Assembly: GCA_037379345.1 (NCBI GenBank)
Contig: CM074516.1
Location: 25,048,001 to 25,111,851 of the forward strand
DNA: 63,851 nt
Direction: 5' to 3'
Source: Perna viridis
Taxonomy: Eukaryota
The notes under the pieces are model-generated. The model saw nothing but the letters and a program-made list of their open reading frames with translations, had not been told where the DNA came from and did not search any database. Shown piece by piece: positions 3,801 through 63,419 of this stretch. The position numbers and the translations under genes are program-made. Position 1 is the first letter of the stretch. Every line of letters begins with the position of its first letter.

Positions 3801-6800
3801 TATCCAGTTAGTTTACAAATTAGAACAACTGACATAAATAAAAGAAATATCTTGATTTTGTCTGATCATTGTAATTCTTATGTGTTCATTTGCTATACAG
3901 GAAGAAGAAATGATTGAAGAACTTCCTCCAGAAACATTGGAGAGATTAGTACGAAGACCAGAGGATTTGCCAGAGAAAGTTGGAGATAATATACGCAAAT
4001 ACAAAACTAACATGCTGAGACTTCTTGAGGTATTAAAAACTATCTCCTTTTTTGCCAGTATTTCAACTGAATGGTAAACATATGTTTTTTTACCCTATTC
4101 AATGAGTGGGTGGTATATTTGAATCACCTTTTCTGTCATGTCTGTCCATCCAAATTTTGTCTCAATTATCTCAGTGCCTAATGCTTGGATTGATTTCAAA
4201 TTTAGTGTTAGGCTTTATATTGATGGGGTATACATTGTAAGCCATTTTGGGTATTGTACACTATCAGCTTCCAGTTTCATGGGACTTTGTCATTTTTCAC
4301 TAAATAGAATGATTGAGAAAATTTTGTCACAAAAATCTCAGAATCCAATAGATGGGTTGATTGTGAATTTAGTATATAGATGTAAGTGATTTTGGGTGTT
4401 GTCAAATATTCACTTCCTGTACAAGATGGGGTATATCTAGCATGGCAATGCATACAACTTCAAGCTTGTAAATTTTAGCTGGTTCAACTGCTAAAATATA
4501 ATAATTTTTTTTATATTTCTAACATTATTCTTAGATTAAAATGGTGATATTTAAAATTTATGTTGGTAAGGCTGTAATAGAAAGTTTACAAACCTTAAAA
4601 GTTAAGGTTTGTTTACTTGGAAGATCACAATAAAGGACTACTTTTCTTCGGCAAATGTGGTCATTTTTTTTTCTTTAGAATCCATTTATTCAGCAAAACC
4701 ATCAGTGTCTTTCTTTCAGTTTTTAATATGCATATTTTTTGCTTTCAATAATATTTCCGATTGAACACTCTTCTTCTTAAATAAAAAAAAAAGCATTATC
4801 TACAACTTTTGTTTAGAAGTAGCAATTTGCTGGTTAAGATTGGTTAAATTGAAATATTTTGTAGGATTATATGGCAGATCATGACCAACAGTACTTAGTA
4901 GAGATGGATGGAAATCAAGCTTCAACAGTTTTATTCAAGGTGAGATAAATATAAAAGGAATCAAATAGATATTTGTAAATTTCAGTGGTTTCATGTGTGC
5001 ATACATGTCTATTTGTGTATATATATATATATATTTGAATTTGACAGTTCTAACATCCTTGGGAATTTTTCAGACCCTTCTATAAGTTTACATTATCTTC
5101 CCTGTATCAATTTTATCCAATGGAGCAGTGTAGCGAATAGAGTTGTCACATTCTGAGACGTTGTGTGTAGAATATTGATTTGTTGTGACATGCATCTTTA
5201 ATTTGATCCTCTATCCTATGTAGTAACACCTAGATTAACTGTCCTGTACTACCATACATCGTGTACTAAGTTACAGACCTAGATTAATCCTACGAGGAGG
5301 AATGACCCGGCCAGCAAAAGCTATATTTTTATATAGCCTAGCTGGCTGAGTGGTCTAGGGTGCTGGACTTAGTGCAGGTGGTGTTGCCATAAATGTCACA
5401 GCTGTACAAGTTCGAGTCCCATGGAGGGAACGACCAAAAATTTGAATTTGACAGTTCTAACATTGTTGGGAATTTTTCACATATATATGCTTCTTTTTTT
5501 CAGTTAGGCAATTGTGTGACTGTGAAAATAATTAAATTCAGATGCTGAAGAGATAGAAAATAGTCTAGCTAACTGAATAAAAATAAATAGTTTTTTAATT
5601 TGCTATGAATTCTCATTACTTTTATTTATACTAAAGGTCTTCTGTTGCAGTAATCAAATTTTCAAATAATTTAAGGTTCACTTCTCATTTTTTTTTTAAG
5701 CTCTAAAAACTTACATATGTTATGTACATTTTTCAGCAATTAATGACCAGATTGAGTTGTTTTGTGCTAAGGCCAGCGGCAGTGCCAATGCGGCTCATTG
5801 ACCCAGATGAAGAGGATGTTCCTGAGGATATTGAGGCTGATGAGTTAATGCGTCTCCTTGGTCCAAAGAGAATGGTTGGTCCACGTTTCAGATGGCGTCG
5901 CAGTAAATGGATGAAAAATTGTCCTGTGGCATTACATGAAGGGAACATTTTGCCAGGGAAACCAGAATTTGCTGTCAGGTATTTATTTCCAATGATTCTA
6001 TATTGATATTGTAATTTGTAAGCGACTTAATGTTACATAATTCATTGTAAACTTTTTTAAGTCATTTTCTCTGAAAACAAAAGCATGGGTAAAAAGTCAG
6101 AAATATTCGGAATAGCAGGAATTAAAGTTAAGAAAAAAAAATTATTGTTACTTTGGAATAGCAATTCCTTATTTACTTATGCCAGAAATGATTTTTCTTT
6201 ACAATTATAAACTTAGTCAAATGTTGTTTCCACCAGCAAGTGACAGTCTTGTCTAATCATTTCACATTTTAATTTTCAGTTTCTTAGATAAGATCTACTG
6301 TTTGTCCAGTGTGGATGCTATTACAAAGTTTATAAAGAATCCTAGACCATACCTTCTTCCACCACAGCCCCGCCCTCCATGCAAATTGTGTGTCATGGGA
6401 CCGCCCCTTTCAGGAAAGACAACCTTGTGTAATTTACTTGCTTCAAAATATGGTGCAAAGGTTTGTTGATATTTTTTTAGTGAAAATGTTAAAACAAGTA
6501 CTGAAGTGTATATATACTAGAAAAAATACTAAAAAAATCCATAGCTTAATTTTTGGATGGATATAATAAAATGCAAAAAAGGGAAGTATTTATTATGTTC
6601 AAAAACTACATGGCATGTTTTGCATGTTTACTTTAGAAATAAATTTAAAAAAATAAAGAGTATTTTATGAAAAAAGTATAAGTATTTCAAATTTTGTACC
6701 CTTAATATAGGTGCTGGACATGGATGCCATAATACAGCCTCATTTAGATGAAGAAAAGAAAAGGTTCCTCGAGAAAACTAAGGAAGACACAACAGAAACT

Positions 6801-21800: not shown

Positions 21801-24800
21801 TTCAAAACATTCTTGGTTTTTAGGTTAAATCTTCTGTAGATTTGAAAATTTATACTTATTTTTTGCCTTCATAGCTTGTTTCAAACAACATGTAATTGTT
21901 ATACACTACTTTGTATTGTGTCTTAGCTATTATGATGTTAAGTATTAAAACATGTTTTTTTCAAGTACAAATGTATTTTGTTGGCTTGTCATAAGTTCAC
22001 AACATATGGTAGTTGTATTTCATTCATGTATAAGCTTGAGGTAATGGAGTTAAGGGCTATTGACCTTCTGGTGTTTCTGTGTTTGAACCTTACACAATTT
22101 CATATTACCAACAGGAAGAACAGATACAGAAAAGAAGAGAAGAACTGGAAAAAGAACAGGAAGAGAAAAGAAAAGAAAGACAGGTATTTTAAGAATATTT
22201 GTGACATATCTGTCACATGATTTTATGAAGGGAGGGAAGATGGAAGCGGAATTTTTCGAAGGGAATAAGATATGCAAATCATGATATGAATCCAATATAA
22301 ATTTGAGTCTAATTTTATCTTGTATACAGTAGATAGAAAAGATTTTAGATAATAATTGTTTATGAAATTCAAAGAGTTGTTAAGTATTATTATTGTCAGG
22401 ACAATTTAAAGTACTGTTTTTTTTCTTTTTACAGGCTGAGAAAGAAGCTCAGAGAGCTGAAGCTGAGTCAGATGAAGAGATTGAAGAGGAGGAAGTGGAA
22501 GAAGAGGAAGAGGACAACATTGAGGCAATCTTAGCTGAGGAGTTTGAAGAGGAAGAGGAGGAGGAAGAAGAAGAGGAAGAAGCAGAGGATGAGGCCCAAG
22601 ATAGAATGAAAAATGATATTTCAGAAGTGTATGACAATGATAAAAACAGATTGGAAAATGTTCAGGTAAATATAACGTATTCAGAAGTACTGTGATAATA
22701 AGGAATAGATGATGTGTAGATACGTCAAGCAGGAGAAAATGAGAAAGTGGTATGACACATTTTATTATTACCATAAAAAATACAAATGGTGGAAAATTGA
22801 TTATTTAGTGTAACTGTTTTCATCATTTTGAATTATCCTCTCATTATTCATATTATCATTTCGGCATGGGCATTTGATGTTTGTAAGAGACTTGTGTGGT
22901 TTTGATAAAAGTAACAAAATGTAATTTTATCGCCTTATTATAGACATCATTCATGGAGGTGCTAATTGACTCAATAGAAGTGGACAGCAGTAGAAAGCCA
23001 CACATTATTTCATATGTAATGTCCAAAAAACTAAAGAAATACATCCAGGCAAGACACAGTATGTTTGAGAGAATCTACCCTGTCAGTGAGGCCCTGGCCA
23101 GAAGAATGTTACAGACAGGCTACAAACAGCCCAGCAGATTTGGTCGATGGTGTCCTGTCAAGGTAAGTCATTTTTTATTTCAGGAAATGTTGGTTGAAAA
23201 AAGACTATGGATGGTGGAGAAGAAAAAACCTATAAAACCCAATGACATGGTACACAGCCTTTTAGAGAAATTATAGATAAAGTTTTTTATTTTGAAATAC
23301 CTGGTTTTATTTTTATGCACGATTTGAATTCTTTCCTAGCGTATGCTCAACATCTTTCTTTGAAATTATAATGAATGAACTTTTCATTTTTTTCAAAGCA
23401 TTCAAACCAGACTGGAATATAAACTTCCATCATAGAGCATAATGTTTGCATTACATCTTTTTTTCCAGTCAAAAGAAGGTAATTGTATCCAGCCTATGAG
23501 TGGAATGGGATACCCAACATACCCGTGTATATACAGACAGAACATCTACTATCTATCTTCTGTTCAGGCCAGAGATGAGTTCATGCAGGATCCTATGGCC
23601 TTCCTCACACAGCCAACACCCAAACCTGTAGTCCCAATCAGGATGGCTGTGATTGGACCTCCAAAGTCTGGCAAAACTACATGTAAGTCTTTTGTTGTGT
23701 TCACTTCTTTATACATTTTATACTGATTAAGTTAAAAAGCTTAAATAATACAGTTGATGATTTGTAAATGTGATAAGGAAGAGATGACACATTGCATTAA
23801 GATAATTTCCTCCATTTAAAATTTTGTTGTATCTTTTTAAATCTTATATAATTCTTTCGTAAAGATTGTTTTATGTTTCATTGTTTTAAAAAAGGCCATG
23901 TATGAAATGCTTACTTTACAATTATCATGAGTAAAATTCATAAACATCACAAATATTTACAACTTTCTTGTCATTGCAGTGGCCAATAGATTTGTGGAGG
24001 AGTATGGTTTGGTCAGGTTGTCTATTGGAGAAGCAATGAGGCGTGTCATGATGGAACAGCCAAAGTCCGACCTGTCGAAACAGATACAGAATCATGTGAC
24101 CAAAGGTTTAACAGTACCTGATGAACTGGCTGTCCAAGCTTTGGATATCTGCTTACTGGACATGAAATCTCAAACCAGAGGGTATGTTTTGGATAAGGAA
24201 GTGAAATAATAAGTTATCTGCTTTTTGTCTGATTGATGTTGTGCTAAGAGATATTGAATATAAAAAGTTAATATCACACAGAAAAATCTGTTTATTAAAA
24301 TGATTGTATGAGGAGGCCAATACCTACGTGTCAATTTATTGTACCCCCACTTTGAAGTTTTGGGGTGTATAGTGATAATGATTTGTATTATTTGCATTTT
24401 TAAAGGTCTCTTTATAAGCACTTTATAAACAGTCCAATTATTTAGAGTAGCTTGAAACCTGGAATTTTATCAAAGACACCATTTATACATACATTATCAT
24501 ATATATATCATTTAGATACATTTTGGATGGTTATCCCAATACCATGAAACAAGTAGAGTTGATGACAGAAAGATGTATCATACCTGTCAGAGTTATAGAA
24601 CTTGATATTGACAGTAAAGAGGTCATGGTCAGAGGTCTGAGAGACAGAATGTCACCATCTAGGTTGGTGTTATACCTGTTTGAAATATTGACTTTGAAAG
24701 TAGCGAGGCTATGATTAGAGAGAGTAATCAAGGAAACCAAGGTTATAGCGGTAATCAAAAGAATGTAATCCAGGGACAAAGACCCGACATGGAAAACAGA

Positions 24801-27800
24801 CATACACAACAGAACATAAAGTAACTAAAATCATACATACAAAGTAACAAAAGCGAATGAGCAACTCAGACTCCACTAAAAACTGGGAGCATGGACCAGA
24901 TGCACTGGTAGGGTAAGCGTCCTCTGCTTTTTTAGAAACACCTGCCGAGTTGCTCATAAAAAGTCAAGTCCGGGGTAGACAAACGAGGAGAGGAAAACTA
25001 TGACCTGTTGAATAAATCAGTTTTCATGGTGCAGATGGATGCACCATAACAATCCACAAGTTCATGATGATGACCATAAAACTTCTGTAGTGATGACTTC
25101 AATCTTGTAGAGGTCAGAGAGATGGAATGTCAGCCTCTAGATAGGTACTATACCTATTTGAAGTAATGAATTTTACATTGACATTTAATGTTCAACGTCT
25201 TTAGTTTAAGGGACAGAATATATATGACGCTTTATGTATAGATTTTTCATCAATTATATGTGGGTACGAATTGCAGAAAAAATTAACAAAAAACTTATAA
25301 AATATCTGATTATTTTTAAGACCTTGATAAAAATGTGCAAATGGTTTTCCCTAGAAAAAAGACATTTGCCAATGTTGAGTATTATTGATCATACTCAAAA
25401 AAGAAACCTTTTTTTTTTTACTCATATTTGTTCATTCTTCATGTGACATAATTTATATTTCAGGGTGTTACCACTACATGACAGTTCACAAATTCTGGCA
25501 ATCAAATTAGCTGCATACAACAAAGAGGTTGCTGCTGTTAAGGAATATTATGTTCAGGAACATATGAACTTTATTAAGGTCGATGGTCAAAGGTCAAAAT
25601 GGTGGGTGTGGAATAGGAGTCTGGACATTGCCCATGAAAGTGTTAAAAAGATTCAGACCTATCTACAGAGAATCTCTGATGGTAGGTATATAACACAAGG
25701 GATTTAACTTCTAAATATAAAAAAAAAACACCAAAAGATATTTAAGAGTTATGATAAAGATCATTTTAACCAATGATGTATGCCATATCATGAAATAATG
25801 ATTATGAAATGGTTACCTAAAACAAAAATATTTTGATCTTACATAAGTATGAATAACAAGTAATCAGGTGATTAAAATGGTATAATGGCTATTTTAACAC
25901 CCTCAAACCTTTTTAATCAATTCTAGTGATACCAAAAGAATCCCTCCAAACTTCTCATTTGAGTCATATTTATAGTGTCCTTTGTTTTACTTTCAGGTCG
26001 ATCAGCCTCCATTAGTGATATGTGCATCACACCCAGTGAGTTCTTGCAGAGAGTTGGTGATTTTGGACAGTATTGTCCTGTCAGTCTGGCATTACGGGGA
26101 GAACTTGTTGATTGTTCATCAAAAGTGTCACTGGAGTTTGCTGCTGAATTTAGAGGTAGATATGTTTACCATCCTTCTTGCTATTTACAATGATTGAAAA
26201 ACAATACAAATTATACACATTGATGAACAAAAAAACTAATTAAGATTTAAAGGCATGAATAATTTTCATTTCTATATCAAATAATTAGTGATTTTGTATG
26301 TTGAAAAAATAGATGGAGATATATTGACATTTTTTATGTTCTACTTCTACCTACAGAAGACAGATATATAACATTTATCAAAAAGTTGTCAGTTATCCAT
26401 CATCTTAAATTTCAGTTGACAATCAACAAAATAAATGATAAAATCTTTTGTATTTAGCACACTACTACAAGATGGCTGGTCCTGAGGAGTTGAAACATTT
26501 CTTAGCCGATCCTGAGAAGTTTGTCCCACCTCTGGCACCACGTAAACTGCCTCCTCCAGAGTTGTTACCTAAAAGATACGATCCTAAAGAAGTGAAAGCT
26601 TCACAGGTTATAGAACTGAAGGGATACTGTCCTGTTACTTTCTTAGATGGCAAGTGCAGGTAGGGTGAAGAAGTAATGAGTTTTATATCCAGTTTCCTGG
26701 AGTATCACATATATTGCATACATATATCCTAAACAGAGAATTTCCAAAGAGGCCAATGGTTAACTTTGTAGCAGATCTTTTGTATATATTTTTGTGAGTT
26801 AATGATAATATCCATACAATATTTTGAATTGATCACTTTTTACCTTTGTAGATATGAAGCAATAGTTCCTGGCAATCAAGATTTTATTGGAGAGTACCAA
26901 GGGAAATATTTCTACATGGAGACAGAAGAAAAATTAAATAAATTTTTGAAGTAAGTACAAAATAGTCTGGCTCTGTGAATTAATAGAATGATACCATTAA
27001 AAAGACAAAACTTAAATAAAAAAAATAAATTTTTTCCCTCAACTCGTATAAAAGAGTAAGCAGGCTCATGGTTACTGGTATCTTTGTGTTGTTAAAGGAT
27101 GTGATATGTAAAAAGCTTCATGAAACTTTCATAATTTTGGATATGAGAGCTATTGACTTAGTTCATGAATATCATTTAAATGTAAAATTGGGAATTTGAG
27201 TACCTTCAGTTAATTAAATCAATTGCAGTAAGTCTACATCAATAAAAAAAATATTTTCCTGTATAATTCATCAATAAATGTTATTTTCAGACTACCAGAG
27301 AAATACTCTAATCTTACACTACCACACAAACTGCCTCCTCCAAAAGATGCCCTCCCAGTCACTGGCCTTCCAATGCTGGGTTATATGGAGCAGACTGCTG
27401 CCACAAATCTGGTGAAAGCATTAACAGCTGTTGGTAATTTCAAACCTAAATATCCTTTCCTGACTCCAGCCAGGTCTGCCCAGTTGTATGTTGCGTATCA
27501 CTTAAAAGGTAGGTAAAATACTGTATTAAATCATTCTAGTATTTGTGGTTTAAAAGAACAGGTTTTATGTATAGTTATCTTGATAAATCATTTTGTTGGT
27601 GTTGGTTTTCCATATTTTTCGCCGAATTTCACATGAAAATCGGGTTATTATAGGATAATTCTAATCATGAGATTCTTCATGCATATAGTCGTTTTTGATA
27701 GGTCGAGGTCGTCTTTGCTAGAAAGTTCATACTTGCATGCACTTTGCCAGATTGTTCATACATGCGTGAATGCCGGTCAACTTGAAACCAATATGGCCGC

Positions 27801-28861
27801 CGTCTACTTCAAAAGAGTGTGGCAATGAACTTAACAGCATAATAAAGCTGTTACTTAGTTAATTACATCAACATCAATTTTTATTTTACCGGTCAAGTTT
27901 GTTTACAGAGAGTAATTTTCAGCTCGGGGAAAGAAGTGCTTAAAATCTAACTACCAGTAAATTCACCCCAAAATTAAATTGTCCCAAAAAAGATTTTATA
28001 AATACATTTACTGATTCAACACATATAAACAAAACAATTCCAAAATGTTGGGATAGAATTATAAGGATTAAACAGTTATTTTCGGTCTTTCATGCATATA
28101 TGAACGACCAAAAAATAGCTGTTTAATCCTATAGTGAATGTTGGTATTCGGTATCCAGCATCAGTTACTTGTCCCATATCGTGGAATCCAATTTCAGGGC
28201 TTTCTGACATCTGCTTCCTTTTACTGAAATTCGGTTATTTTTGTCTTCCACCCATTTTCTAAAAATTCTTAATGCATATTATGCTCTATAGGTTGTGAAT
28301 ATCTCCAAAGTAGCCTTGTTAAAAATCCCAACTTTCAGGGTTTTACGGATCATTTTCATAAAATACAACTAAAAATATGGATTATCATAAAAATAGCATA
28401 ATCAGTTCTATAGATAAGGCGTTTGAATATTTCAGATTTGTGCTTTTTATAATAGTTAATTCTTTAAGGCAAAAGAAAAATGAAATTTGATTTTTTATTT
28501 GTAGAGTTATAATGTACAATTTCTTCCACAAAGAAATGGTGACATTTCAGTTTACACATACTGCAAATTTTTTTCCCATATTTTCATTCTAACTGATACA
28601 GTTAGGAAATGTAAATTTATAATTTATAGTACCCTTATTTTACTTTCAGCCTTTAATCCCAAGAGTTCAGATTATGTGAGAAAGAAGTACAAGCAGAAAT
28701 TACAGAAATTTGAAGACACATGTAGATTAATTGGATATTTAGGAGACAATATGACTGTAAGGTATCGTGATCCAAATGATCGACCAGGAGACTTTGACAA
28801 TAAGTTAGAAACATTCTTTGCCCTGAAAGGAATTGAACCAACTACCACATGGCTTGCATAA
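843..28861 (+). CDS. AK9: Adenylate kinase 9 (multi-exon; start codon possibly 885 or in an exon upstream of the window)
   Basis: Four P-loops: GKPGAGKT (exon 1483-1603), GPPLSGKT (6280-6460), GPKGAGKS (20698-20894), GPPKSGKT (23469-23682). AK motifs GYVLDDFP, GWILDNFP, GFILEGFP, DGYP; YHS-like CPV..Y..F...P repeats; AK9-type C-terminus LPMLGYMEQ..KPKYPFL..AYHLKAFNPK. Exons read with AG/GT boundaries (approximate): 843-992, 1483-1603, 1936-2085, 2380-2492, 2900-3007, 3463-3531, 3901-4029, 4865-4939, 5737-5978, 6280-6460, 6711-6870, 7995-8036, 8216-8269, 9634-9660, 10701-10781, 11979-12291, 12550-12777, 14033-14154, 14923-14940, 16839-16919, 17412-17462, 18240-18289, 18734-18769, 19237-19414, 19685-19806, 20146-20364, 20698-20894, 21067-21284, 21528-21747, 22114-22183, 22435-22665, 22944-23162, 23469-23682, 23980-24181, 24517-24662, 25464-25681, 25997-26155, 26458-26659, 26852-26951, 27291-27508, 28650-28861 (stop TAA). 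The frame is open upstream of ATG 885 back to the acceptor. Confidence 0.93.
1023..1243. mobile_element. MITE with 17-bp TIRs and 6-bp flanking direct repeat
   Basis: cagtctttcagaaggtt ... aacctttggaaagactg, flanked on both sides by atcaac. Confidence 0.7.
1483..1603 (+). CDS. AK9: AK9 exon with first P-loop (GKPGAGKT)
   Basis: tttcag acceptor and gtatgt donor; encodes TELRFLHSKPTCFIVIGKPGAGKTTLVRRLA. Confidence 0.9.
2186..2762 (+). repeat. ~85-bp direct repeat pair (2186-2271, 2677-2762) flanking an AK9 exon
   Basis: tattaactaactttattttatgtt...gattataatttgaa near-identical in both introns. Confidence 0.85.
4085..4470 (+). mobile_element. Decayed Helentron-associated (HINE/DINE-like) non-autonomous element
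   Basis: T-run start, 5' subterminal repeat, gtctgtccatcc microsatellite-like stretch, core with a partial internal repeat, 3' end ggggtatat...cttgt; family call from architecture only. Confidence 0.45.
5038..5481 (+). mobile_element. ~450-bp direct-repeat-bounded element with internal tRNA-Leu-like segment (copy 1)
   Basis: aatttgacagttctaacat..tgggaatttttca at both ends; A box tggctgagtgg, B box gttcgagtccc; flanked by (TA)n. Confidence 0.8.
6280..6460 (+). CDS. AK9: AK9 exon with second P-loop (GPPLSGKT)
   Basis: Encodes FLDKIYCLSS..FIKNPRPYLLPPQPRPPCKLCVMGPPLSGKT; canonical splice sites. Confidence 0.9.
8400..8612 (+). repeat. Minisatellite, ~3 diverged copies of a ~65-bp unit
   Basis: tgtccacagtcc...tcctactcantggtattca repeated. 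Confidence 0.7.
8706..8783. repeat. Foldback/hairpin mini-element (~33-bp arms)
   Basis: atcttcactagccaattgttccggtcctgcccc / ggggacaggaccgaaccattggctagtgaagat. Confidence 0.8.
14391..14580. mobile_element. MITE with perfect 16-bp TIRs
   Basis: cagtgttctaggatta ... taatcctagaacactg; no clean TSD. Confidence 0.75.
15335..15532. mobile_element. MITE with ~27-bp imperfect TIRs and internal tandem repeats
   Basis: tgtacacagtcaaatgtgccacatatg ... catgtgtagcactttagactgtgtaca; internal gaatcataccatgcttg repeats. Confidence 0.7.
17590..17800 (+). repeat. Minisatellite, ~5 copies of a ~42-bp unit
   Basis: tcaactttcattgtgt..ttaagtttcattgtatac repeated. Confidence 0.75.
20698..20894 (+). CDS. AK9: AK9 exon with third P-loop (GPKGAGKS)
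   Basis: Encodes APPLRLLMLGPKGAGKSLHSR; gtaagt donor. Confidence 0.9.
23469..23682 (+). CDS. AK9: AK9 exon with fourth P-loop (GPPKSGKT)
   Basis: Encodes PKPVVPIRMAVIGPPKSGKTT; gtaagt donor. Confidence 0.9.
24721..25110 (-). mobile_element. Naiad-type PLE 3' fragment (RT C-terminus plus 3' UTR) in an AK9 intron
   Basis: Matches 35129-35210 (LKSSLQKFYG..HELV) and continues into the shared 3' UTR. Confidence 0.85.
27645..28132. mobile_element. Non-autonomous DNA element with long terminal hairpin (possibly Crypton-like)
   Basis: CpG-richer insert; 28064-28130 is a hairpin with ~30-bp arms; ttcatgcatata occurs near both ends. Confidence 0.45.
28650..28861 (+). CDS. AK9: AK9 terminal coding exon
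   Basis: tttcag acceptor; encodes FNPKSSDYVRKKYKQKLQKFEDTC...TWLA then TAA. Confidence 0.88.
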
Positions 28862-32506: not shown

Positions 32507-32550
32507 ATGCTGCTGATGAGAGGTTACTCCTTGAAACACGTGTACAGCAT
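32507..32550 (+). ncRNA. Minimal type I hammerhead ribozyme
   Basis: Stem I atgctg/cagcat; core CTGATGA; stem II gagg-ttact-cctt; GAAA; palindromic stem III acacgtgt; GUA cleavage triplet. Confidence 0.75.
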
Positions 32551-32675
32551 ATCGAAATTTACAGTAGATAAAACTGGTATTTTTTGTATTTACAATACCT
32601 GAAATTACTATTTTGCAGTCACTTTGCAAGGCTTGTAGATTATGTTATAATGCATGGTTTATAATTTGACTTTCA

Positions 32676-33123
32676 AATTTGACAGTTCTAACATCGTTGG
32701 GAAATTTTCAGACCATACTATACGTTTGCATATCTTCCCTGTATCAATTTGATCCGATGGAGCAGTGTAGCGAATAGAGTCGTCACATTCTGAGACGTTT
32801 GTATAATATTGATTTGTTGTGACATTCATCATTAATTTGATCCTCTATCATACATAATAACATCTAAATGAACTGTCCCGTACTACCAAACATAGTGTAC
32901 TAAGTTACAGTCCTAGATTAATCCTACGAGGAGGAATGACCCGGCCAGCGAAAGCTATATTATTATATAGCCTAGCTGGTCGAGTGGTCTAGGGCGCTGG
33001 ACTTAGTGCAGGCGATGTTGCCATAGATGTCACAGCGGTAAGAGTTCGTGTCCCGCGGAGGGAACGACCAAAAATTTGCATCGCAAATTTGACAGTTCTA
33101 ACATCTTTGGGAATTTTTCAGAT
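32676..33123 (+). mobile_element. ~450-bp direct-repeat-bounded element with internal tRNA-Leu-like segment (copy 2)
   Basis: Colinear with 5038-5481; followed by (TA)n. Confidence 0.8.
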
Positions 33124-33384
33124 CTTTATATATATATATGTACAGTATTTAGTAATAGCTGTTATGCTATCATCTTCCATACAATTCACAAAAGACAGCT
33201 AAAGACAAAACTCGACAGATGGAAATATCTTAGCTGCAGCGCTAGTATAGATTTTGTAGATCGAAAAGAGTGAGCAAGATATCAAAGATTCTAGCGGTAA
33301 CTTAAAGGATTATTCCAAAGATAAAGACTAGACAAGTAAAATAGATACTCATAACAACGAAAATCAAAAAAGCTAGGTAAATCA

Positions 33385-33656
33385 GCAAAGCGGACTACAC
33401 TGAAAACCTGAAGGATTGACAAGGTGTAGCAGTGGGGTATGCATCTGCTATTCTAGAAAAAAAATGAGTTGTGATTTGAAACTCCATACCAACAAAATAA
33501 CAATATAAAAAAAAAACTGGCGACAACGGTGACGCAAAAAGGCGAACCAAATGATCACTCTATAGTCGTGAAAAGTCATAACGTCACGCCCGGGAGCTGC
33601 ACATGAAATGCAATCCGGGGAGAACTGAGCGTCATAACAACAGAATTCCGGGTCTA
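33385..33656 (-). repeat. Diverged repeat shared with 63420-63641, related to the PLE 3' UTR motif
   Basis: cggactacactgaaaa...ttctagaaa...tgagttgtga...gacaacggtgacgcaaa...aattccgggtcta in both copies. Confidence 0.65.
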
Positions 33657-35128
33657 TGGAAAAAAATAACAAATTAAAATTTAAAGATAGTGTCTTAATA
33701 TGCAATGTGCTTCAAATGCAACTATACGCAATGTAGCTTTACTTTATCACTCGACGAAATCACTCATTTTTTAGGTTTTAGGTCTGAAAACAGGTGGAGT
33801 CGTGATAATGCTTAAGCGTTGCACACAAAAAACTTGCATGTTTGTCCATTTACCTGACAGGTAATTTGTTCATGAAAAATATAAATTGATGTACTGAATT
33901 GATGGCATATTGGCCTACATCATTGATTCATTATAAATGGGTAAACTATTTAAAAAGATTTAAAACTGTGACTTACTTTTACGGTATAAAATTAAATGGT
34001 CAATTCAACAATCTAAATGGCAACAAATACTGCTACTTCAGCTCCTATCAAACTAAGACAGCTTTGAGATTCTGTAGAAAACGATTAAACATTGGAAACA
34101 CTCAACAAAGTATGACATTGTACAAAGGAAGAAACTTGCATGTTTCAATAAACTACTCCATTCTTCCAAAAAAGGGAATTGATATCAGATAACAACCGAC
34201 GTACATCTCAGTAATGAGAAGTGTTAAAGCAAAGATTGTGGAGCTGAGATGTTGCAACGAAAATTTTACTATATATTTTACACATGCACTGACATATTTC
34301 CTTCTAAACTTTAACAGGAAGATTTCACTAAACAGAAACCAACGTTTGTTGACAATAAATGCATCATTAATTAGATTGATTGTAGGTATGTTTCAGACAG
34401 AAGACGAACGGACAGACGGGATGACATACAGGCGCGGTTGTTCCTATAAAACAATAATATCAGGTATATTATAATTTCGGCCGAGGGAAGTATCTACTTT
34501 TGTGTAAACCTCTGGACCCGCCATTTGTTTGGCTTATTCTTAATTATAAGCATGATATTTGATGGTCATGAAAATAATGGTTTTATAGTTTATAATGGAT
34601 TTACAGTTTATTTGCAAAATTTAAGTCTTAGCTCATTTGACGAAATATACAGCTGAAAAAAAACATTTAAATAAATGTAGATATAAATTATACTGACAAA
34701 AATATATCGGCATGGCAAACAAAAAAAAATGCTCAGGACAGACCATTTTATCAAATATGAAAAAGACAAGTGTCTGTAATCAAAACCATATTTAAATTTG
34801 CTCGTGTCTTTGCGAAATATATAAACTATGATTTGAATTCAAGTAATACGTGTTAAAACTATTCTTTATCCAAGTATTTATAACTCATAACCTCCAGAAG
34901 TGTAAAGTTTGCCTTTATAAGATATTTATAGGCCAATTTAGTTGAAATGCGCCATGAGGAAAAGTGTAAGGAAAGTTTTCCCACATCTTTTCCTTATAAA
35001 CAGGTAAACAATCTATTTGAGAAAAATGAAGTACCAGTCATTGCCTGACTCTTACACATAATGGTACTGAAGCAATTGTCTAGCGGTATCAAGGTCGCAG
35101 TAATTTCACATTCAGGCCAATTAGATTG

Positions 35129-37864
35129 TCATGTGGATACACCATAACGATCCACGAGTTCATGATAACGACCATAAAACTTCTGCAGTGATGACTTCAA
35201 TCTTGTAGCAACATAACCCTGTTCCAGAAGTCTATTTGTTAGAGTTCTAGCGCGATACAAAACGTCTGCGTAGTTTCGGCAAGCTTTGGCATAACGTATG
35301 AGTTGTGATATGAATACTCCATACGCAGGTGCCGAAGGGATGTTGCCACACATGAAAGGAAAGTTGACAATTCTGAATGAAAAGTCATCACGTTTGTCGT
35401 AAAGTTTGCTCAATAGTTTTCCTTTACCATCGATATCTAAGTGTAGGTCAAGATATGAGGCTGACTTCACAGTGTCTGTAGTATCCTTTATCTCAAGTTC
35501 TTTTGGGTAGATTCGATGTATCAAATCCCCGAAATTAGGATTGTTTAAAGATAATACGTCATCTTTATAGGAGAAACTGAGATTAAAGGATCTAGCCAAA
35601 CGATATACTTTCTTTCGGATCAGATCAGCTATAAAAGTCAGACTCATAAGAGTGAAGAAATAGGTCAGCAAGTAAAGGAGCACAATTTGTTCCCATTGGA
35701 ATGCCGACCATTTATTAAAAACGCGTCCACCACACTGGACAAATATGTTGTCAATTAAAAATTCCAGCATTTTGTCAACATCTTCCTCTGTATATTTGGA
35801 AGATGATTTGGAATTATTTCTTACAAAGTATGAGGAATCCCTACCAAGAACTATATATAGAACAATTTACATCTAGGTGTACCATCTTTTTTGGAAAAAA
35901 CAACGATGTATAATGTTTTAAAGTCGAGATTTTAACTGAGTATGGGGAATAGAAGTATACAGTGTTGAAAAATCATAGGTTTTAATGCTATTATATTCAG
36001 ATAATAGTCTTGAACTGATTGTATCCAAAAGATCTTTCGAATTTTTCAGGATCCACATTGAATTAATACCACTACGGGAGTAACAAGTGTTGTGGTAAGA
36101 CTGCAGACCCTCTTTGACAGTTGTGAGTATAGAAGTTAAAAGTTTTGAAAGAGGTTCGGTGGTACATTTTGCAGATCCAGCTATGAAACGTTGTTTGTAT
36201 GGATTCTTGTGGAGTTTAGGAATCCAGTACATGGACGGTAAATCACAAACATCGTCCTTGGTAGAGAGACCAAAAGAGGATAGCACAGATGTATGGTTTT
36301 CCACAATTCCTTCTTTGGAGAGAGTGGTAGCAGCATAGGTCTTATCACTGCTATTATTTTCTACGTCTACCTCTTATAACAAACATTTGATGTAGAACGT
36401 TTTTCAGACAAAAACAATGTTGTTTTGGGCTTTGTCTGCTGGTACGACAACATATTTATCATGTATAGTAGACAATGTTTTTGCTACATCGGGGTTTTTG
36501 AAAACTGATGTAGCCTTGGCACTCATTGACCTACTTAAAACTTTCATTCGTTTCAAAATGAAAGATCTCACGGCCTTTAACCACTCTGACAGAGAATCAA
36601 TGTCTTCTTGTTCTCGTTTTATCCATTTTCTAGCATAGTCCTCGACGGCATCCATAAGAACTTTAAAGTTATAATTCCAATTTATGGAGCGTGGTTCACG
36701 GTACTTGGGACCTTTAGAAAGGATATTACGCAGAGATTCGTTTTCGATAATGGTTAAATCTCCCGTAACGACGTGACCAAAAGGACCATATTTGAATGGA
36801 GAGGTTTTGCAGCAAGAACAGTCAGGTGGTTTAGCCTTGAAGTCCTCAGTCTCGAGGTTCTGGAATAACCTTTTATAATTGAAAATTTTGGATGGGTAAA
36901 GTATAGGAATATGAAATAATTGGTATGGATTTATCTTTGAAATATGGGGGAATTTTGTTGGTAATGATCGTTTTTCTTCATCTTGACTTTTCACACAAAC
37001 TGGTTTATAAAGAGTCTGTGGAAACCAATATTCAAGATGATGGCAACAAGTCTGTATAATGATGAGGTGGGGTCAGAAACAGGAGTGTCAAGACTTGTTT
37101 TGTAAAGGGAGTGTAGTAGAGTGAGAGGTATAGAATAAAGTTTGGTTCTAATGTAATGGAGTCCAAGAGGTTTTTGTATGAAAGGAAGGAGACCATCTAT
37201 GGAGACATCATGCAAATTAGGTGACGTATAGTGACGATGACCATGACTCCTTTCTTGGATTTTTGTCAAATAAATTCATCACATTTATGTTATTGTTATA
37301 TTGGCTTGAAATGTTTCCTATACTTTTGATGTTGTCATTACATCCGTAAGGTATTGTAGTACCTAGTTTGCGTATCCAGTATTCCTCTCTTTCCCAACGA
37401 TAGTTTTTACCTAGAACGGGACTGTTCGTAGGATGGTAATGTTTTTCTAAAATACGAACTTTCATGGAGAGGATTGAATGATCTTGTTGATTAAAGTGTT
37501 GATAAACTGTCGGGAATTTGGTGGTGTTAATTCCCGAACGATGACCGCACATTCTTTTATTTAATCGTTCTTGCGTTTCTCCGACATATATTAAACCACA
37601 TAAGTTGCACTCTAATCCATATATTAAGTTTGTTGATTTGCAACTTCAGTCATCGTGGCTTCTTGTATGGAAGGTTTTGTTTGTATGGGAACTGAAGAAG
37701 TAAGGGTCGGTTATTAGAATGTTGCATGTTTTGCAATTTTAAATACCACATTTTGATATGGTACAATGTGGTTCGTCATCGTTTAAAGTGATGGAACATG
37801 GTTTGATAATTTTAAAACAGTCAACAAATGAGTTGAATCGAGGCACCCTCAAAACTGGGATCAT
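35129..37864 (-). mobile_element. Penelope-like retroelement with N-terminal GIY-YIG endonuclease followed by RT (Naiad-type), decayed and 3'-truncated
   Basis: From ATG 37864: CGI*NCKTC, NLIYGLECNLCGLIYVGET..RLNKRM.GHR, REEYWIRKLGT..PYGCND, KGPKYREP, VVVPADKAQNN, YWIPKLHK, YDFSTLYTSIPH, YKDDVLSLNN, KLYDKRDDF, SQLIRYA; several stops and frameshifts. Confidence 0.92.
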
Positions 37865-40143
37865 CCTTGTATTTGTTATATACTAGTGGGGCTGCATATT
37901 TGATAGTGGGAGTAAGCCCTAGATGGGCTACACATTTAATATTGGGAGCAAGTCCCTGTGGTTGGCGAAAACTGTACATGTACATGTTACCGAGTGATAA
38001 AAAAATCTCTTTTAATCCGTAATATACGTTCGCTCTAGTCTTTTTATATTGTATACAGTGTAACTTGAGTTTTTTTAATATGTCGGGTATGATTGTAAAT
38101 TATATGGCAAGCCAAAGTGGACAAAAATGAGTGTATTCTAAAAATGATTTTTTTATATTACAAATTCAGTTTTCTAATAGTACAAATTATATTTCTTATA
38201 TCACAGAACACTCTTTAATATTGAAAAAAACCATTAATATAAAAAATATATTGTCTGTCTAGCGATGTGAAGGTCGCAGTAATTTCACTTTCGGATTGTA
38301 GAAATTGATTTAAAATTTTGAATTATTTTTCACCGCCTAAAACCGTCTCTAAACAACATGAGGCGGTAACGGATATACCCCCTGCTTTTACAGTAAAACT
38401 GGTTTTAAATATATTTGTTATGATTTGTTATGTAATCGGAAATGAGCTGAATTGCAAAGTCATAGAGAATGGTGCAGTGTACCAATTAAATTAGTTTTGT
38501 TAACCTTAATATGTTTAATATAATAATATACTTTGGTATATTGGTGGCGCAGGTAATATTATCACTTCAGTACTAACTATCAGATACAAAATGCTAACAA
38601 CCTCAAACCAATGTATGCTGTACCTCCGTTATTAAGTTTACGAATAAATACAAGTTTTTATTGCTATTGAATATTCAGCATGATTTTAATGGAATTTATT
38701 AGAAAAGAGAGACACCAACCAGGTGACAAGCCTGAACCATTGTTTGTATTCCCCTTTCTGAAAAAAAAACTGTTCCTCAAAAACAGATTGCTGAAAAAAA
38801 TTAAACTAAAAATTTCATCAAAGTTTGAACCCTACCATTGCATGCAAATAACATATCATTCGTGTGTTTTGCATTGTACTCGGAATTTACGCAAACTGCA
38901 AACTAACTTATTTGAAGAAACTAACGATAGGGGAATAAATTGAATGTAAATTTGGGACTTGTTGTATCAAGAAGGTTCGTATCCGGACCTGGAGCCTATC
39001 TATTTCTGGACATTTCCGTGAGAAGAAAGATAACTGGGATGTATTTTTGTTACTTTTCACATTACGTCCGTTCGTTAATTTAGTTATTCGATTATCTCTA
39101 TTATTTTAAGACTTTTTTTTTACAATACATTTAATTTGGAACAGAAATTATGAAGTATTAATGTGCAAATATATTTTTACTATTTTACCTATTTTAATGC
39201 ATGCATGGTTGCAACGTTAAATGTCCTTCCATGAAAACTAATCTGCACAAAACACACAACGTTATCTGTCTCATTAACGACCACATTCTATATGATGTCG
39301 GCTGTTCCTGTCCCAAGGTGATGTTGAATGTCTGATTCTTTATACTAGGTAAGATGTGGTTGCAGGATTTTCGTGAGTCAACTGAATTTGGTCTTCGCCT
39401 TTTCCATAAAAAGGTGATGCATTTGCAGGTTGCAAAACGTGTACTGCTTTTACACTGTCTATTAAACAGATTTTGTATGTTTTGATAGTTTAAAAAGTAC
39501 TTGATTACTTATCGATTTGATACATTTTGAAACTTGTGTAGTGCTTTCTCAAATCTTCAAATTTAGAGTTTAACAGAAACGGGGAGTACCGCATTAAATG
39601 ATAATGATGGCTTAAATAATTTTGTCAAGTTATGATAATTTTCAAAGTAGTAAAATTAATAGGCAACACTGATTAAAGCCGATACAAATATTAAATTGTT
39701 ATTACACTTACCTATTATAGAGAGGGTGTAAATTGCAATTTGTTAATGGCTGAAATAGATCTGTCGGAATTGACGAACGCAGTTAGGAAGTTGTTGTTTG
39801 AACATTTAATGCATACACGTATCGCATATTCCAGTTGATCGAGACACATCAGCGACATTGAAAAAGTCACAGTCATTTGAGTACAAATAACCCCGTCACT
39901 CATAGACAGAGTCTGTAGTGATAATTTAACTTATATCAAAACCATTGAATGGTTCTAACAAACGCAATCGAATAAAGTGGAAAAACACAAAGGTCAACAT
40001 AAATTATTTCAAATAACATATACTTTTTAATTCCTCAATAAGGTATAAAAAACTTTAAAGCGTTCTGCTTATTTAAAACTTAAGAACGGTATATCCTGTT
40101 TATAAATGCAAATAATTTTAAGCCTAGATAATACTTAACTTGC

Positions 40144-40470
40144 AATATTTATCTTCCGGATTGGTCTTTTTGTATACTTTTGCGATATTACCATATATAA
40201 CCTGACATCTAACAACAACGTAATTGTCCCGATGGGTCATCATCATGGTAAATGTACTGGTGCCATTAAACGTACAGGTTCCTGGCATAACTGTAAATGT
40301 TGTTGTTTCAGTATGAAGTAGTTGCTTTCGAAGTCGTCTGATCCTAATCCATATAAATCTACCTTGAGGTTTACCTACGTTACATGTAGAAGTAAAGGTT
40401 ATACTCTGCCTTTCCTCAATGCCAACTGAAGGAGTGAATGAGAGGATTGCGTCATGGGATGCTGGATTAA
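40144..40470 (-). CDS. Ig-like (C2-set/nephrin-like) domain exon, possibly part of a pseudogene
   Basis: ITFTSTCNVGKPQGRFIW...NGTSTFTM.MT..DN..VVRCQV; ag acceptor, GC-type donor. Confidence 0.6.
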
Positions 40471-40569
40471 CTATACAAATTTGCATATCATGTCTTTTAT
40501 ACACTAGTAATTTTCTATGTAATTTCAACATCATTCTCAACATCAATTGAAATTATCACCTTTATTGTA

Positions 40570-40810
40570 ATGACTTTTTATGAGCAACTCGGATGTTTCT
40601 AGAAAATCAGAGGACGGTTACCTTACCGGTGCACCTGGTCCATGCTCCCAGTGTTTAGTCGAGTTGCTCATTTGCTTTTGTTACTTTGTATGTATGATTT
40701 TAGTTACTTTATGTTCTTTGTTGTGTATGTCTGTTTTCCATGTCTAGTTTTTGTCCCTGAATTACAATCTTTTGATTACCGCTATAACCTTGGTTCCCTA
40801 GATTATTCTT
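40570..40810 (+). mobile_element. Naiad-type PLE 3' UTR fragment
   Basis: atgagcaactcgg...gagttgctcat...gattattct. Confidence 0.8.
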
Positions 40811-41022
40811 CGAAATTACTTGCTCTGACTTTCATTCCACAAAATCAAAGCTTATAAATACTCTTTGATAATTAACATTCTATGTTAGGTTAAACTTCTT
40901 ACAATCTATGTATGTAACTTTTTTGCACTTTATTTAAAGAGTTTGGTCAATAGTTAAAGAGTATGCAACTACTGCAAGGTACAGGATACAAACAGCATTA
41001 TATATGGTAGTCAAATGGGCCA

Positions 41023-41480
41023 ATGAGTGGTGTGTTACCATCAATTGAGAGAAAACAACAGCAAACCCTCTTTACACTCTCACCTAAAACCCAATCTGTC
41101 AAACTGACCATGGATGACATCCATATCACAATGGAAGATCAGCAAACATATCCTGGTGTAACCCTCGATAAAAGACTTACATGGAAACAGCATATAATGA
41201 CAGCAGACGCCAAAGCCAGACGAAAACTAAACATTATGAGAAAACTTGCTGGTACAAACTGGGGCGCTAATGAGAACGTTTTGAAATCTGTCTACGAAGG
41301 AATTGTACGCCCATATCTAGAATATGGCTCTAGTGCTTGGAAGACAGGAGCTAAGCCTCACCATCAGACTCTAGATAAAGTCCAGAATCTGGCACTCCGC
41401 ATCATCATAGGAGCCATGAAATCAACACTTATTGCTAGTATGGAGGAACTTACAAACATACCACCATAAAGTAAGAGAAG
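41023..41480 (+). mobile_element. LINE (I-group, Nimb/Ingi-like) RT C-terminal fragment
   Basis: YPGVTLDKRLTWKQHI...KLAGTNWGA...RPYLEYGSSAW...LDKVQNLALRIIIGAMKST. Confidence 0.85.
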
Positions 41481-41509: not shown

Positions 41510-41911
41510 CTGGTCCATGCTCCCAGTTTTTAGTGGAGTCTGAGTTGCTCATTTGCTTTTGTTACTTTGTATGTATGATTTTAGTTACTTTATGTTCTTT
41601 GTTGTGAATGCCTGTTTTCCATGTCTGGTCTTTGTCCCTGGATTGCATTCTTTTGATTACCGCTATAACCTTGGTTCCCTTGATTACTCTTTTAGTTACT
41701 TTATGTTCTTTGTTGTGTATGTCTGTTTTCCATGTCTGGTGTTTGTCCCTGGATTGCATTCTTTTGATTACCGCTATATCCTTGGTTCCCTTGATTACTC
41801 TTTTAGTTACTTTATGTTCTTTGTTGTGTATGTCTGTTTTCCATGTCTAGTTTTTGTCCCTGGATTACATTCTTTTGTTTACCTCTATAGCCTTGGTTCC
41901 CTAGATTATTC
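41510..41911 (+). repeat. PLE 3' UTR fragment with terminal 111 bp triplicated in tandem
   Basis: Units at ~41579-41689, 41690-41800, 41801-41911. Confidence 0.9.
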
Positions 41912-42378
41912 TTCGAAATTACTTGCTCTGACTTTCATTCCACAAAATCAAAGCTTATAAAAACTCTTTGATAATTAACATTCTATGTTAGGTTAAACTT
42001 CTTACAATCTATGTATGTAACTTTTTTGCACTTTATTTAAAGAAAATAGTAAATAAATCAAGAAGAAATAAAATATTTTGAACCTTCTCTAATCCTTTTA
42101 TTATCTTCAGTAAACTTAAATGGAAACAATATATTTTTTTAATAAAAAATACAATGTTTGTTTAGATGTTGAACATGTACATTTCAATCCTCGACGCTTC
42201 AATATTTAATTCATAACTCACACCACAACCATTCAATGGTTTGAACAAACGCTTATATAAGATCTGAACAAAATCTTTATTTAACCAAGTATGTTTTGAA
42301 CAGTCCCGTTAAATTTGTTTCACTTACAAATTTAACAAAGCACATACTAAAAGGTGCTTGTGACAATACCGAACTTAC

Positions 42379-42703
42379 AATAAACATTTATCGGACCGGT
42401 TTGTTTGTATTCTTTTTCGACATTATCATAGAAAATCTGACATCTAACAACAACGTCGTTATCCTTTTGGATCATCGTCATGGTGAATGTGCTTGTACCG
42501 TTAAATGTACAGGTACCTGGCATCACTGTAGCTGTTGCAGTTTCGGAATCAAATATTTGCTTTTGATACCCTCGAATCCTGATCCTTCTGAACCTACCTT
42601 AAGGTTTACCTACATTACCTGTACAGGTGAAGGTAATACTCTATCCTTCCTCAATCCAGCTGTAGGTTTAAACATAGTAAGGTATCTGGTGCTGCTGGGT
42701 TAC
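42379..42703 (-). pseudogene. Disabled Ig-like domain exon, paralog of 40144-40470
   Basis: ITFTCTGNVGKP*GRF...CTFNGTSTFTMTMIQKDNDVVVRCQI with in-frame TAG/TAA and a frameshift; gtaagt donor. Confidence 0.75.
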
Positions 42704-42882
42704 CTTTGAATATTAAAAAGTTATACATATTATGTAAATATATAAATTTATAAGAAGTCCAATGGGATGTGGGAACTCTACCATCTTACTTGCTTGTGCA
42801 TTACTATAAAGACCCATAGCATATATGTACAGGGGAGGATCAACATAGAATTTTTCAGCCTTGCATCAAATTAAAATATATA

Positions 42883-43336
42883 TATAGAAGGGTCTGAAAT
42901 ATTCCAAACGATGTTAGAATTGTCAAATTTGCGATGCAAATTTTTGGACGTTCCCTCCACGTCGAACTCGTACCGCTGTGACATCTATGGCAACAACGCC
43001 TGCACAAAGTCCAGTGCCCTAGACCACTAGGCCAGCTAGGCTATATAAAATATATAGCTTTCCCTGGCCGGGTCATTCCTCCACGCAGGATTAATCTAGG
43101 GCTGTAACTTAGTACACGATGTATGGTAGTACGGGACAGGTGTTATTAAGTAGGATAGAGGACCAAATTAATGATGCATGTCCTTACAAATCATCATTAA
43201 ACAAGCGTCTCAGAATGTGATGACTCTTCGCTACACTGCTCCACCGGATCAAATCGATGCAGGGAAGATAATGTAAACTTATAAAAGGATCTGAAAAATC
43301 CCAAACGATGTTAGAACTGTCAAATTTGCGATGCAA
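42883..43336 (-). mobile_element. ~450-bp direct-repeat-bounded element with internal tRNA-Leu-like segment (copy 3)
   Basis: Reverse complement of copies 1 and 2; ~55-bp terminal repeats; (TA)n at its 3' end. Confidence 0.8.
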
Positions 43337-43629
43337 GGCTGCAATATTTGCGATGAGTGATAGTCAAAATCCATAAATCAATGAAATAATCTGTTTTCTT
43401 TTTAACAACAATTGCAGGTAATATTTTAAAGTCAAGCGTTTCCTTATGTATTGTAATACTAGGACTAGGTTAGTTACTATCAATAGAAAAACAGGTATCA
43501 TTTTAAGGAATCGATATGAAATAAAAAAAAAAAAACAATATTCAAAGCGTTTTCTATTTTTCTGATTATTTCAGAACTTTTAGGTATACCTCTTAATTTT
43601 TTTTTTATAAAATCTACTTTGTTATTGAC

Positions 43630-44001
43630 CCGGTAATCAAAAGAATTTAATCCAGGGACAAAGACCAGACATGGAAAATAGACATACACAACAAAGAGCA
43701 TAAAATAACTTAAATCATACATATAACGTAACAAAAGCAAATGAGCAACTGGACTCACTAAAAACTGGGAGCATGGACCAGGTGCATCGGTAGGGTAAAC
43801 TTCCTCTGCCTTTCTGGAAACACCCACCGAGTTGCACATTAAAAGTAAAGTCCGGGGTAGACTAAGAAGGAATGGAAAACTATGACATGTTAAAAAAATA
43901 AGTATTATGGCGCAGATGGATACCCAGTAGCGATGCACGAGTTCATGATATCGACCATAAAACGTCTGTAGTGGTGACTTGTCTTGTAGCAACATAACAT
44001 A
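43630..44001 (-). mobile_element. Naiad-type PLE 3' fragment
   Basis: LQTFYGRYHELVHRY followed by the shared 3' UTR. Confidence 0.8.
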
Positions 44002-48057: not shown

Positions 48058-48218
48058 GAAAACATTCCGAGTTGCTCATTTACTTTTGTTACTTTGTATG
48101 TATGATGTTGGTTAATTTATGTTCTTTGTTGTGAATGTCTGTTTTCCATGTCTGGTCTTTGTCCCTGGATTGCATTCTTTTGATTACCGCTGTAGCCTTG
48201 GTTCCCTTGATTACTCTT
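48058..48218 (+). mobile_element. Naiad-type PLE 3' UTR fragment
   Basis: ccgagttgctcatt...cttgattactct. Confidence 0.8.
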
Positions 48219-63392: not shown

Positions 63393-63419
63393 GAAATACT
63401 AATGAAATAAAGATTAATC

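Follow-up and report, generated by a model that had tools for sequence, protein, structure and literature searches.

A close precedent for the element described here is found among the hammerhead-carrying SINE-like repeats of Schistosoma, which we take to be Sm-alpha. In these repeats the monomer cut by the hammerhead has its Pol III promoter at the 3' end, and propagation is therefore restricted to tandems (PMC6765202). Metazoan non-LTR retrozymes, which are defined by a type I hammerhead and set apart by it as described in PMC7229834, include mussel families of 350-390 bp (PMC7229834) and have been proposed to be non-autonomous derivatives of Penelope-like elements (PLEs; bioRxiv 10.64898/2026.07.22.740005); the term "Pol III" has no occurrence in the main texts of these two sources. 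The reverse transcriptase (RT) of PLEs starts internally after cutting AT-rich DNA, at two start sites that delimit a tail of 30-40 bp (PMC11167929). Naiads are often associated with (TA)n, are without hammerheads and rarely have target site duplications (TSDs), and non-autonomous members of their sister clade Chlamys, such as MRC1, make pseudo-LTRs (PMC8557442). In the text of PMC8557442 available to us no tRNA promoter is reported for PLEs, the word "tRNA" occurring once, for selenocysteine.

The DNA analysed is a 63,851-nt stretch of the Perna viridis genome (GCA_037379345.1, contig CM074516.1, positions 25,048,001 to 25,111,851), hereafter the window, which is AT-rich (28-37% GC). BLAST within this 64-kb window confirmed the three dispersed copies of the element at the places and on the strands given in a preliminary description. 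They are 83.8-88.4% identical over 450-468 bp (E 1e-137 to 1e-168), with a pairwise divergence of 8.9-11.3% in 425 ungapped columns. Their features are as follows.

5033..5488, forward strand: copy 1; repeats at 5033-5084 and 5440-5479, foldback at 5263-5375, A box from 5343
5018-5034 and 5481-5488, forward strand: TA runs on both sides of copy 1
32663/32674-33139, forward strand: copy 2
32663..32722, forward strand: left repeat R of copy 2, merging into a CTATA-like motif, the mark of the 3' end in the right repeat
32723..32896, forward strand: body of copy 2, about 175 bp, non-coding and without a known domain
32897..32960, forward strand: left arm of the copy 2 foldback, the complement of the opening ~45 nt of the tRNA-like head, bearing a small side hairpin (about 32922-32935)
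32960..32964, forward strand: loop of the copy 2 foldback, a candidate terminator for Pol III immediately upstream of the predicted start
32965..33053, forward strand: tRNA-like head of copy 2; A box 32977-32987, B box 33043-33053, predicted start at about 32965-32970
33072..33090, forward strand: 19-nt palindrome opening R in copy 2
33084..33130, forward strand: right repeat R of copy 2, with a T5 run at 33114-33118
33127..33139, forward strand: (TA)n run fused with the 3' end of copy 2 (target or tail)
42876..43336, reverse strand: copy 3; repeats at 43336-43280 and 42939-42883, foldback at 43115-43002, A box from 43034
42876-42886, reverse strand: TA run of copy 3
43330..43355, reverse strand: complex left junction of copy 3, with an inverted flank match and a duplicate of R sequence

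All three copies consist of one unit (407, 410 and 397 bp from repeat to repeat in copies 1, 2 and 3) plus a terminal redundancy R of 40-60 bp, the partial-tandem arrangement of a non-autonomous PLE. R measures about 40 bp in copy 1, 47-60 bp in copy 2 and 57 bp in copy 3; the repeat described earlier as 45-55 bp long is thus present in every copy, but its length varies from about 40 to 60 bp. Copy 2 begins at 32674; counting an in-register 6-nt match past a diverged 7-nt stretch moves its 5' end to 32663. Among the three copies in the window none is shorter than one unit, none is a multimer and none stands in tandem. An nhmmer profile recovered only these three, with no fourth copy and no head-only or R-only fragment above the reversed-window control, so the window holds neither a head-only copy nor a solo repeat. 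Outside it, a GTDB scan returned a single locus, a 22-nt chance match with dissimilar flanks in a bacterial contig of 68% GC, and BLAST found no relatives in plasmids.

Several other features of the window were recorded. A multi-exon adenylate kinase 9-like (AK9-like) gene occupies 816-28861 on the forward strand; the one exon tested was closest to named annelid and mollusc proteins (83% Owenia, 76% Lottia), and copy 1 is located between exons of this gene, on the same strand. Intronic minisatellites with periods of 66, 61, 52 and 43 bp are at 8433-8613, 13243-13366, 15370-15503 and 17597-17795. An otopetrin gene lies in a recent tandem segmental duplication (48995-56006 and 56004-61961, 92-97% identical), with a 564-aa ORF (49842-51536) and, at 56865-57516, a copy with an internal deletion; an otopetrin search gave no match at E 1e-20. 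The reverse strand also has two duplicated exons of Ig C2-set-like type at 40127-40552 and 42362-42666, which are 77% identical, one of them about 210 bp from copy 3. Isolated near-perfect palindromes of 67-76 bp, MITE-like or Helitron-like, are at 8707-8782 (below threshold on miRNA models), 56561-56636 and 28064-28130.

With the consensus of PMC8969392 as the scoring reference, an A box with a B box after it was seen at three places in the window and no others, all of them in copies of the element, and 20 shuffled windows gave two hits in total. The A boxes have 0, 1 and 0 mismatches and the B boxes 1, 2 and 2 in copies 1, 2 and 3, and the spacer between the boxes is 49-55 nt compared with 30-35 nt in the consensus printed in PMC8969392. 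Every copy has one A/B pair, located outside R and beginning 65-68% along the element; the promoter described as near the 3' end is therefore in the 3' part, though not at the very end. ARAGORN called no tRNA gene, Rfam gave no tRNA match at E up to 5 in the window or up to 10 locally, and BLAST against phages yielded zero hits and one irrelevant hit. Since no tool called a tRNA, the "Leu" in the earlier assignment of a tRNA-Leu-like A box and stem is a resemblance and not a called isotype; the A and B boxes themselves are found in all three copies. The A-box string quoted in that assignment is a consensus, present verbatim in none of them.

The element resembles bivalve tRNA SINEs and LP-SINEs in its A and B boxes, its 3' simple repeat and a size within their 200-700 bp (PMC11481361, PMC10294476, PMC4758252). 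With SINE2 elements it shares the A/B boxes (3/3 copies) but neither the position of the head nor the TSD, and membership was rejected. Because no copy begins at the tRNA-like head, the element is not an ordinary SINE. Bivalve SINE libraries required the tRNA region to be at the 5' end (PMC11481361, PMC10294476), so that the present layout would be excluded by design and families of this kind may have remained unclassified. Mytilid "unknown" SINEs of 394-418 bp, with AATC tails and TSDs, are among the matches listed (51 of 103) in PMC11481361, and SINE-derived satellites have been described (PMC10702118).

The ends of the copies are marked by alternating TA runs. As reported previously for the sequence following the right repeat, a run of 8-13 nt lies within 14 nt of the right end in 3/3 copies, compared with 0.43% of window positions; at the left end there is one in copy 1 alone. 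No significant direct match between the flanks was detected in any of the three copies (p 0.08, 0.23 and 0.91), and the flanks contain no 4-bp TSD; in copy 1 a TSD could be hidden, because TA flanks both sides. An AT-rich or microsatellite target without a clear TSD is PLE-like, target and tail being indistinguishable in copies 2 and 3. The right repeat of copy 3 extends across the CTATA that is also found after the left repeat, and at this point passes into (TA)n; the TATA of the element itself therefore overlaps the microsatellite.

Measured from a common anchor in R, the left ends are at -12 (copy 1, corrected for a deletion), -13 or -2 (copy 2) and -10 (copy 3), and the right ends at about +35, +45 and +47. 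The probability that three uniformly placed ends fall within 12 nt is 0.003. The expectation that 5' ends would vary while 3' ends are fixed failed as worded, both ends being confined to about 12 nt, and this clustering indicates that the element is one unit plus a short redundancy and not the product of random truncation. All left ends fall in the 19-nt palindrome, which itself follows an A5 run; the folding energy of the palindrome is not significant (z -1.4), and the same is true of small hairpins in R.

The left junction of copy 3 is complex. Its left flank has a 19-nt inverted match (17/19) to its own right flank at 42849-42867, which overlaps the element by 7 nt (p 0.0004), and the junction carries a 10-nt duplicate of R sequence (p 0.015), both values being relative to random window pairs and uncorrected for six flank and three duplicate comparisons. 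This structure agrees with a template switch made as cDNA synthesis on the tRNA-sense strand came to its end, and an older palindrome at the target would also account for it.

Comparison of the two repeats within copies bears on whether they were made from one template. In copy 1 both repeats have the same 7-bp deletion, and the left repeat matches the deleted right repeat for 5 nt past the breakpoint (chance 0.007-0.02, counting 3-4 non-TA bases). Both repeats of copy 3 carry the same G>T, the sole shared minority base in the 35-nt core of R. A C>T in the tail is common to different copies (left repeat of copy 3 and right repeat of copy 2), and within-copy repeat distances (2, 2 and 3) are not below those between copies (1-4). 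The repeat sequences are thus suggestive of a single template for both repeats of copy 1, mainly on account of the deletion. The shared changes could reflect subfamily masters, which would still require homogenisation of the repeats.

These shared changes weigh on the idea of a linear composite SINE, in which a head-R-(TA)n SINE acquired an upstream module, is transcribed from upstream and mobilised by a LINE, and the repeats are a frozen accident. The deletion in copy 1 and the shared base in copy 3 would then need homogenisation, and no upstream promoter was identified. The nearly fixed left ends and the SINE-like 3' simple repeat would suit such a composite, and mollusc LP-SINEs with extra sequence 5' of the tRNA head have been described; these, however, have a TSD (PMC4758252), as do 181 of 201 curated bivalve SINEs (PMC11481361), whereas none is found here. 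Self-BLAST of the window revealed no 3' tail common to the element and a LINE. On the whole we regard this origin as decidedly unlikely. ORF fragments resembling, by eye, C-terminal parts of LINE proteins are on the forward strand at 41011-41469, 54470-54766 and 60149-60712; the one of the three that was scanned had no Pfam hit.

The element contains a foldback of 113 nt (32897-33009 in copy 2), the right arm of which is formed by the first ~45 nt of the tRNA-like head. Its folding energy corresponds to z values of -5.8, -6.5 and -4.2, none of 200 shuffles being as stable in each copy; with the window shifted by 1-3 nt the values are -5.2, -5.4 and -2.8, and on the opposite strand -5.4, -5.6 and -3.4. 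Because it is significant on both strands, the foldback is no proof of an RNA stage. The nested hairpin overlapping the A box, as described earlier, is present but represents only the inner part of this structure. There is no compensatory change in 41 pairs across the three copies, extra conservation of the left arm is not significant (p 0.07, and 0.91 after allowing for window choice), and a plain DNA alignment of the arms is no better than with shuffles, so that the foldback rests on folding energy.

In tRNA-type promoters Pol III starts about 12 nt before the A box. A start 10-15 nt upstream of the A box is given in PMC8969392. The loop of the foldback contains a T-run (T5 in copy 1, interrupted in copy 2, T4 in copy 3) that ends about 12 nt before the A box. 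A run of T4 or longer adjoins the predicted start in 2/3 copies, while 2-6% of unit positions have one. The position of this run is the part of the pattern that is independent of the foldback, and the coincidence is modest and post hoc. If the unit is re-permuted at the loop, the 5' 45 nt of the modelled RNA would pair with its last 65 nt, leaving a U overhang, with a predicted end-pairing probability near 1; this pairing follows by construction from the foldback. In the re-permuted RNA a T5 inside R is at about +143 to +155, just before the putative priming site. The run is T5 in 4/6 repeats, T4 in one and broken in one, and its length equals that of the proposed terminator. Unit-length RNA therefore needs read-through at R, and this is the main internal difficulty of the cycle proposed below.

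A further question is whether the RNA could be processed by a ribozyme. A descriptor search of three doubled monomers, on both strands and with up to one mismatch, found no hammerhead core, although the descriptor is permissive, hitting 69 of 300 random stretches as well as the two look-alikes located outside the element. No Rfam ribozyme was found in the element, a weak negative because a hammerhead-like motif at 32509 was missed as well. An HDV-like fold was rejected by the pattern of the nested double pseudoknot (P1, P1.1, P2, P3, P4): an L3/P3-like motif is on the minus strand in 3/3 copies, all P1 candidates are mismatched and the P2 candidates are without the catalytic junction. Likewise, a GAAA/CUA internal loop is hammerhead-junction-like only without the catalytic strand. 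The 32509 motif (32509-32548, forward strand) is a minimal type I hammerhead-like sequence about 115-125 bp upstream of copy 2 only; it has stem I, the core, stem II, a palindromic stem III and three extra nucleotides, with non-significant folding and no Rfam hit, and is probably a PLE or retrozyme remnant. A weaker look-alike is at 48987.

The element is like metazoan non-LTR retrozymes in being short and non-coding, with a similar unit and dispersed monomers, and in the circular RNA and PLE-driven insertion proposed for them (PMC7229834; bioRxiv 10.64898/2026.07.22.740005). Having no hammerhead, it falls outside both the retrozyme and the Schistosoma SINE classes. With the Schistosoma repeats it shares the 3' Pol III promoter and a layout in which a single copy cannot propagate and the upstream unit transcribes the next; it differs from them, besides the missing hammerhead, in its 40-60 bp redundancy, the 113-nt foldback over the A box and the TA-associated ends (PMC6765202). 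The term "undescribed system" used in the preliminary description was too strong, since tandem-dependent repeats with a 3' Pol III promoter were already known from Schistosoma (PMC6765202); given this close precedent, the element is a ribozyme-free variant and not a new category.

A retrozyme-like cycle working without a ribozyme would require no tandem master: a read-through transcript of the 1.1-unit copy would be cut at the palindromes, the monomer circularised and the circle copied by a PLE RT, and the Pol III boxes would be passengers or make only a short RNA. That all left ends map to the palindrome, that the unit size is near that of mussel retrozymes (350-390 bp; PMC7229834) and that copy 1 lies in sense between AK9-like exons would agree with such a cycle. 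On the other hand, neither a hammerhead core nor an Rfam ribozyme is there to do the cutting, the palindrome is weak and is broken in the lineage of copy 1, and the retained A and B boxes would be left unexplained. Both the cycle and the passenger role of the boxes appear unlikely to us.

Mobilisation at the DNA level was also considered, either by an HUH rolling-circle mechanism of the Helitron or Replitron type or by a tyrosine recombinase, with the tRNA-like piece being captured. The foldback, as stable on either strand, and the lack of a TSD speak for it, but no Helitron-type ends were seen, no such transposase was present among the 10 of 57 ORFs scanned, and integration of a circle by a recombinase would give exactly one unit, not 1.1. 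Replitrons do have terminal direct repeats and hairpins, yet Replitron-1 has a repeat of 6 bp, and plants, algae and protists are named as hosts (PMC10288648). A DNA-level element is in our view very improbable.

Least tenable, and largely refuted, is a miniature LTR element (a TRIM, or one of the Helenus or Cassandra type) with very short LTRs. A 31-nt TG...CA core within R and a purine-rich stretch before the right repeat are reminiscent of such elements, and TRIMs with tRNA promoters exist in bivalves (PMC10886601). The repeat, however, runs past TG and CA by lengths that differ from copy to copy, there is no 4-bp TSD and no evident primer-binding site (PBS), the tRNA part is outside the repeat, and TRIM repeats are 100-250 bp long (PMC6934838). 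The TRIMp3 elements Cassandra, Helenus and Ajax are similar in combining a small-RNA Pol III promoter with a repeat-bounded non-autonomous element whose RNA is permuted relative to the DNA; they have the promoter inside both LTRs, a PBS, a PPT and a 4-5 bp TSD, whereas the present element has a single promoter outside the repeat and no TSD (PMC10886601).

With belief and doubt about evenly balanced, we consider the element to be a Penelope-type retroelement that is non-autonomous, relies on a tandem master for its transcription by Pol III and is reverse transcribed from an internal site once round the unit; equally balanced is our judgement that, as part of the same reading, the genomic copy carries the RNA sequence in circularly permuted form. 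We infer every step of the cycle that follows. On a tandem master (or an excised circle) Pol III would initiate about 12 nt upstream of the A box, pass the T5 in R without stopping, continue along the body of the following unit and terminate at the T-run of the foldback loop. The resulting ~400-nt RNA would form a long stem between its two termini, with a U overhang. A PLE endonuclease/RT would nick (TA)n and begin synthesis at an internal position, the UAUA following R (near +150 to +160). After copying R and the head as far as the RNA's 5' terminus, it would pass to the 3' end lying alongside, through a template jump or on a ligated circle. It would then copy the body and 40-60 nt of R again, and resolution of the product at the palindrome opening R would give R-body-head-R-(TA)n. 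A single copy could express only a ~150-nt RNA of head and R, and would not propagate itself.

The layout of the element fits that of PLEs, namely a unit with a short redundancy, a promoter in the 3' part, TA targets and no TSD (PMC8557442, PMC11167929). More specifically, the element is like Naiads and non-autonomous PLEs (MRC1, Chlamys clade) in its pseudo-LTR or tail redundancy, microsatellite bias, absence of a discernible TSD and absence of a hammerhead (PMC8557442). Non-autonomous PLEs generally share 3' sequence with an autonomous family, which was not found here among the Naiad pieces of the window, and are usually 5'-truncated (PMC8557442).

PLE remnants occur in the window. A degraded, near-full-length Naiad-type PLE in several frames is on the reverse strand at 35117-37700, and a piece 93% identical to it is at 46801-47291. 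It has an N-terminal GIY-YIG domain upstream of the RT region (Pfam E 8e-6) and the CxC, GxKY (as GPKY) and DKA motifs, which are Naiad diagnostics in PMC8557442; Pfam did not name the RT pieces. Twelve 5'-truncated Naiad-related 3' fragments are at 24721-25110, 33264-33371, 40571-40818, 41510-41921, 43631-43998, 46461-46802, 48066-48222, 53592-53762, 55348-55723, 59393-59563, 61324-61687 and 62912-63133. One of them contains a three-fold 111-bp partial tandem of the pseudo-LTR type (41579-41913), and two lie 130-300 bp from copies 2 and 3. An unclassified dispersed repeat, 79% identical between 33380-33538 and 63416-63567, is in both places beside a Naiad-related fragment.

With copy 2 alone as query, scores against 15 targets related to PLEs within the window did not exceed those of shuffles; the targets were the near-full Naiad, the hammerhead-like flank and 13 Naiad 3' fragments. 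None of the 13 Naiad 3' fragments in the window ends in (TA)n. In the Craig table of PMC8557442 a (TA)n preference is listed for 0/11 bivalve Naiads, and a 12-nt motif of R is absent, on one strand, from the supplement of that paper. The original proposal of a non-autonomous element mobilised by a PLE, distinct from an ordinary SINE, is upheld as far as the head position (0/3 copies begin there) and the PLE-like layout are concerned; the Naiad pieces share no sequence with the element and 0/3 copies are in tandem.

Taken together, the points counted for the cycle are the clustered ends, the deletion shared by the repeats of copy 1, the TA runs in 3/3 copies, the foldback, the T-run in its loop and the copy 3 junction. 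Counted against it are the lack of a tandem and of a sequence link to Naiads, the T5 in R, the lack of covariation, the C>T found across copies, and the fact that PLE copies are usually 5'-truncated and these are not, with n=3 copies. The element is real and unusual and was placed in none of the named families compared, and it works most plausibly as a PLE-dependent, tandem-fed Pol III retroposon, a judgement that may hold or fail about equally. No description of this layout was found in the literature covered, most subscription journals and Repbase Reports lying outside that coverage.

A broader generalisation, which we put forward tentatively and with considerable doubt, is that the element represents a class of Pol III retroposons which do without a ribozyme and parasitise the RTs of Penelope-type elements. 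As the terminator would adjoin the start, a tandem or circular template would yield RNA of exactly unit length. It is similarly conceivable, though doubtful, that in this class the inverted copy of the tRNA head clamps the RNA ends, and that an RT primed at (TA)n crosses the junction and regenerates both repeats.

From this one window, a count of three copies in 64 kb is suggestive of an abundant family. If the above generalisation is true, there would be PLE-dependent SINEs which standard curation discards because their head is not at the 5' end, and the element would provide a 400-nt minimal substrate for the formation of pseudo-LTRs and tails. Only one in vitro system is described for the way in which PLEs build these structures (PMC11167929); with a non-coding substrate of 400 nt whose ends are defined, priming at an internal site, jumping from end to end and resolution could be tested directly. 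Such elements would extend SINE biology beyond LINE partners, and would show the strategy of the Schistosoma repeats and retrozymes running without a ribozyme.
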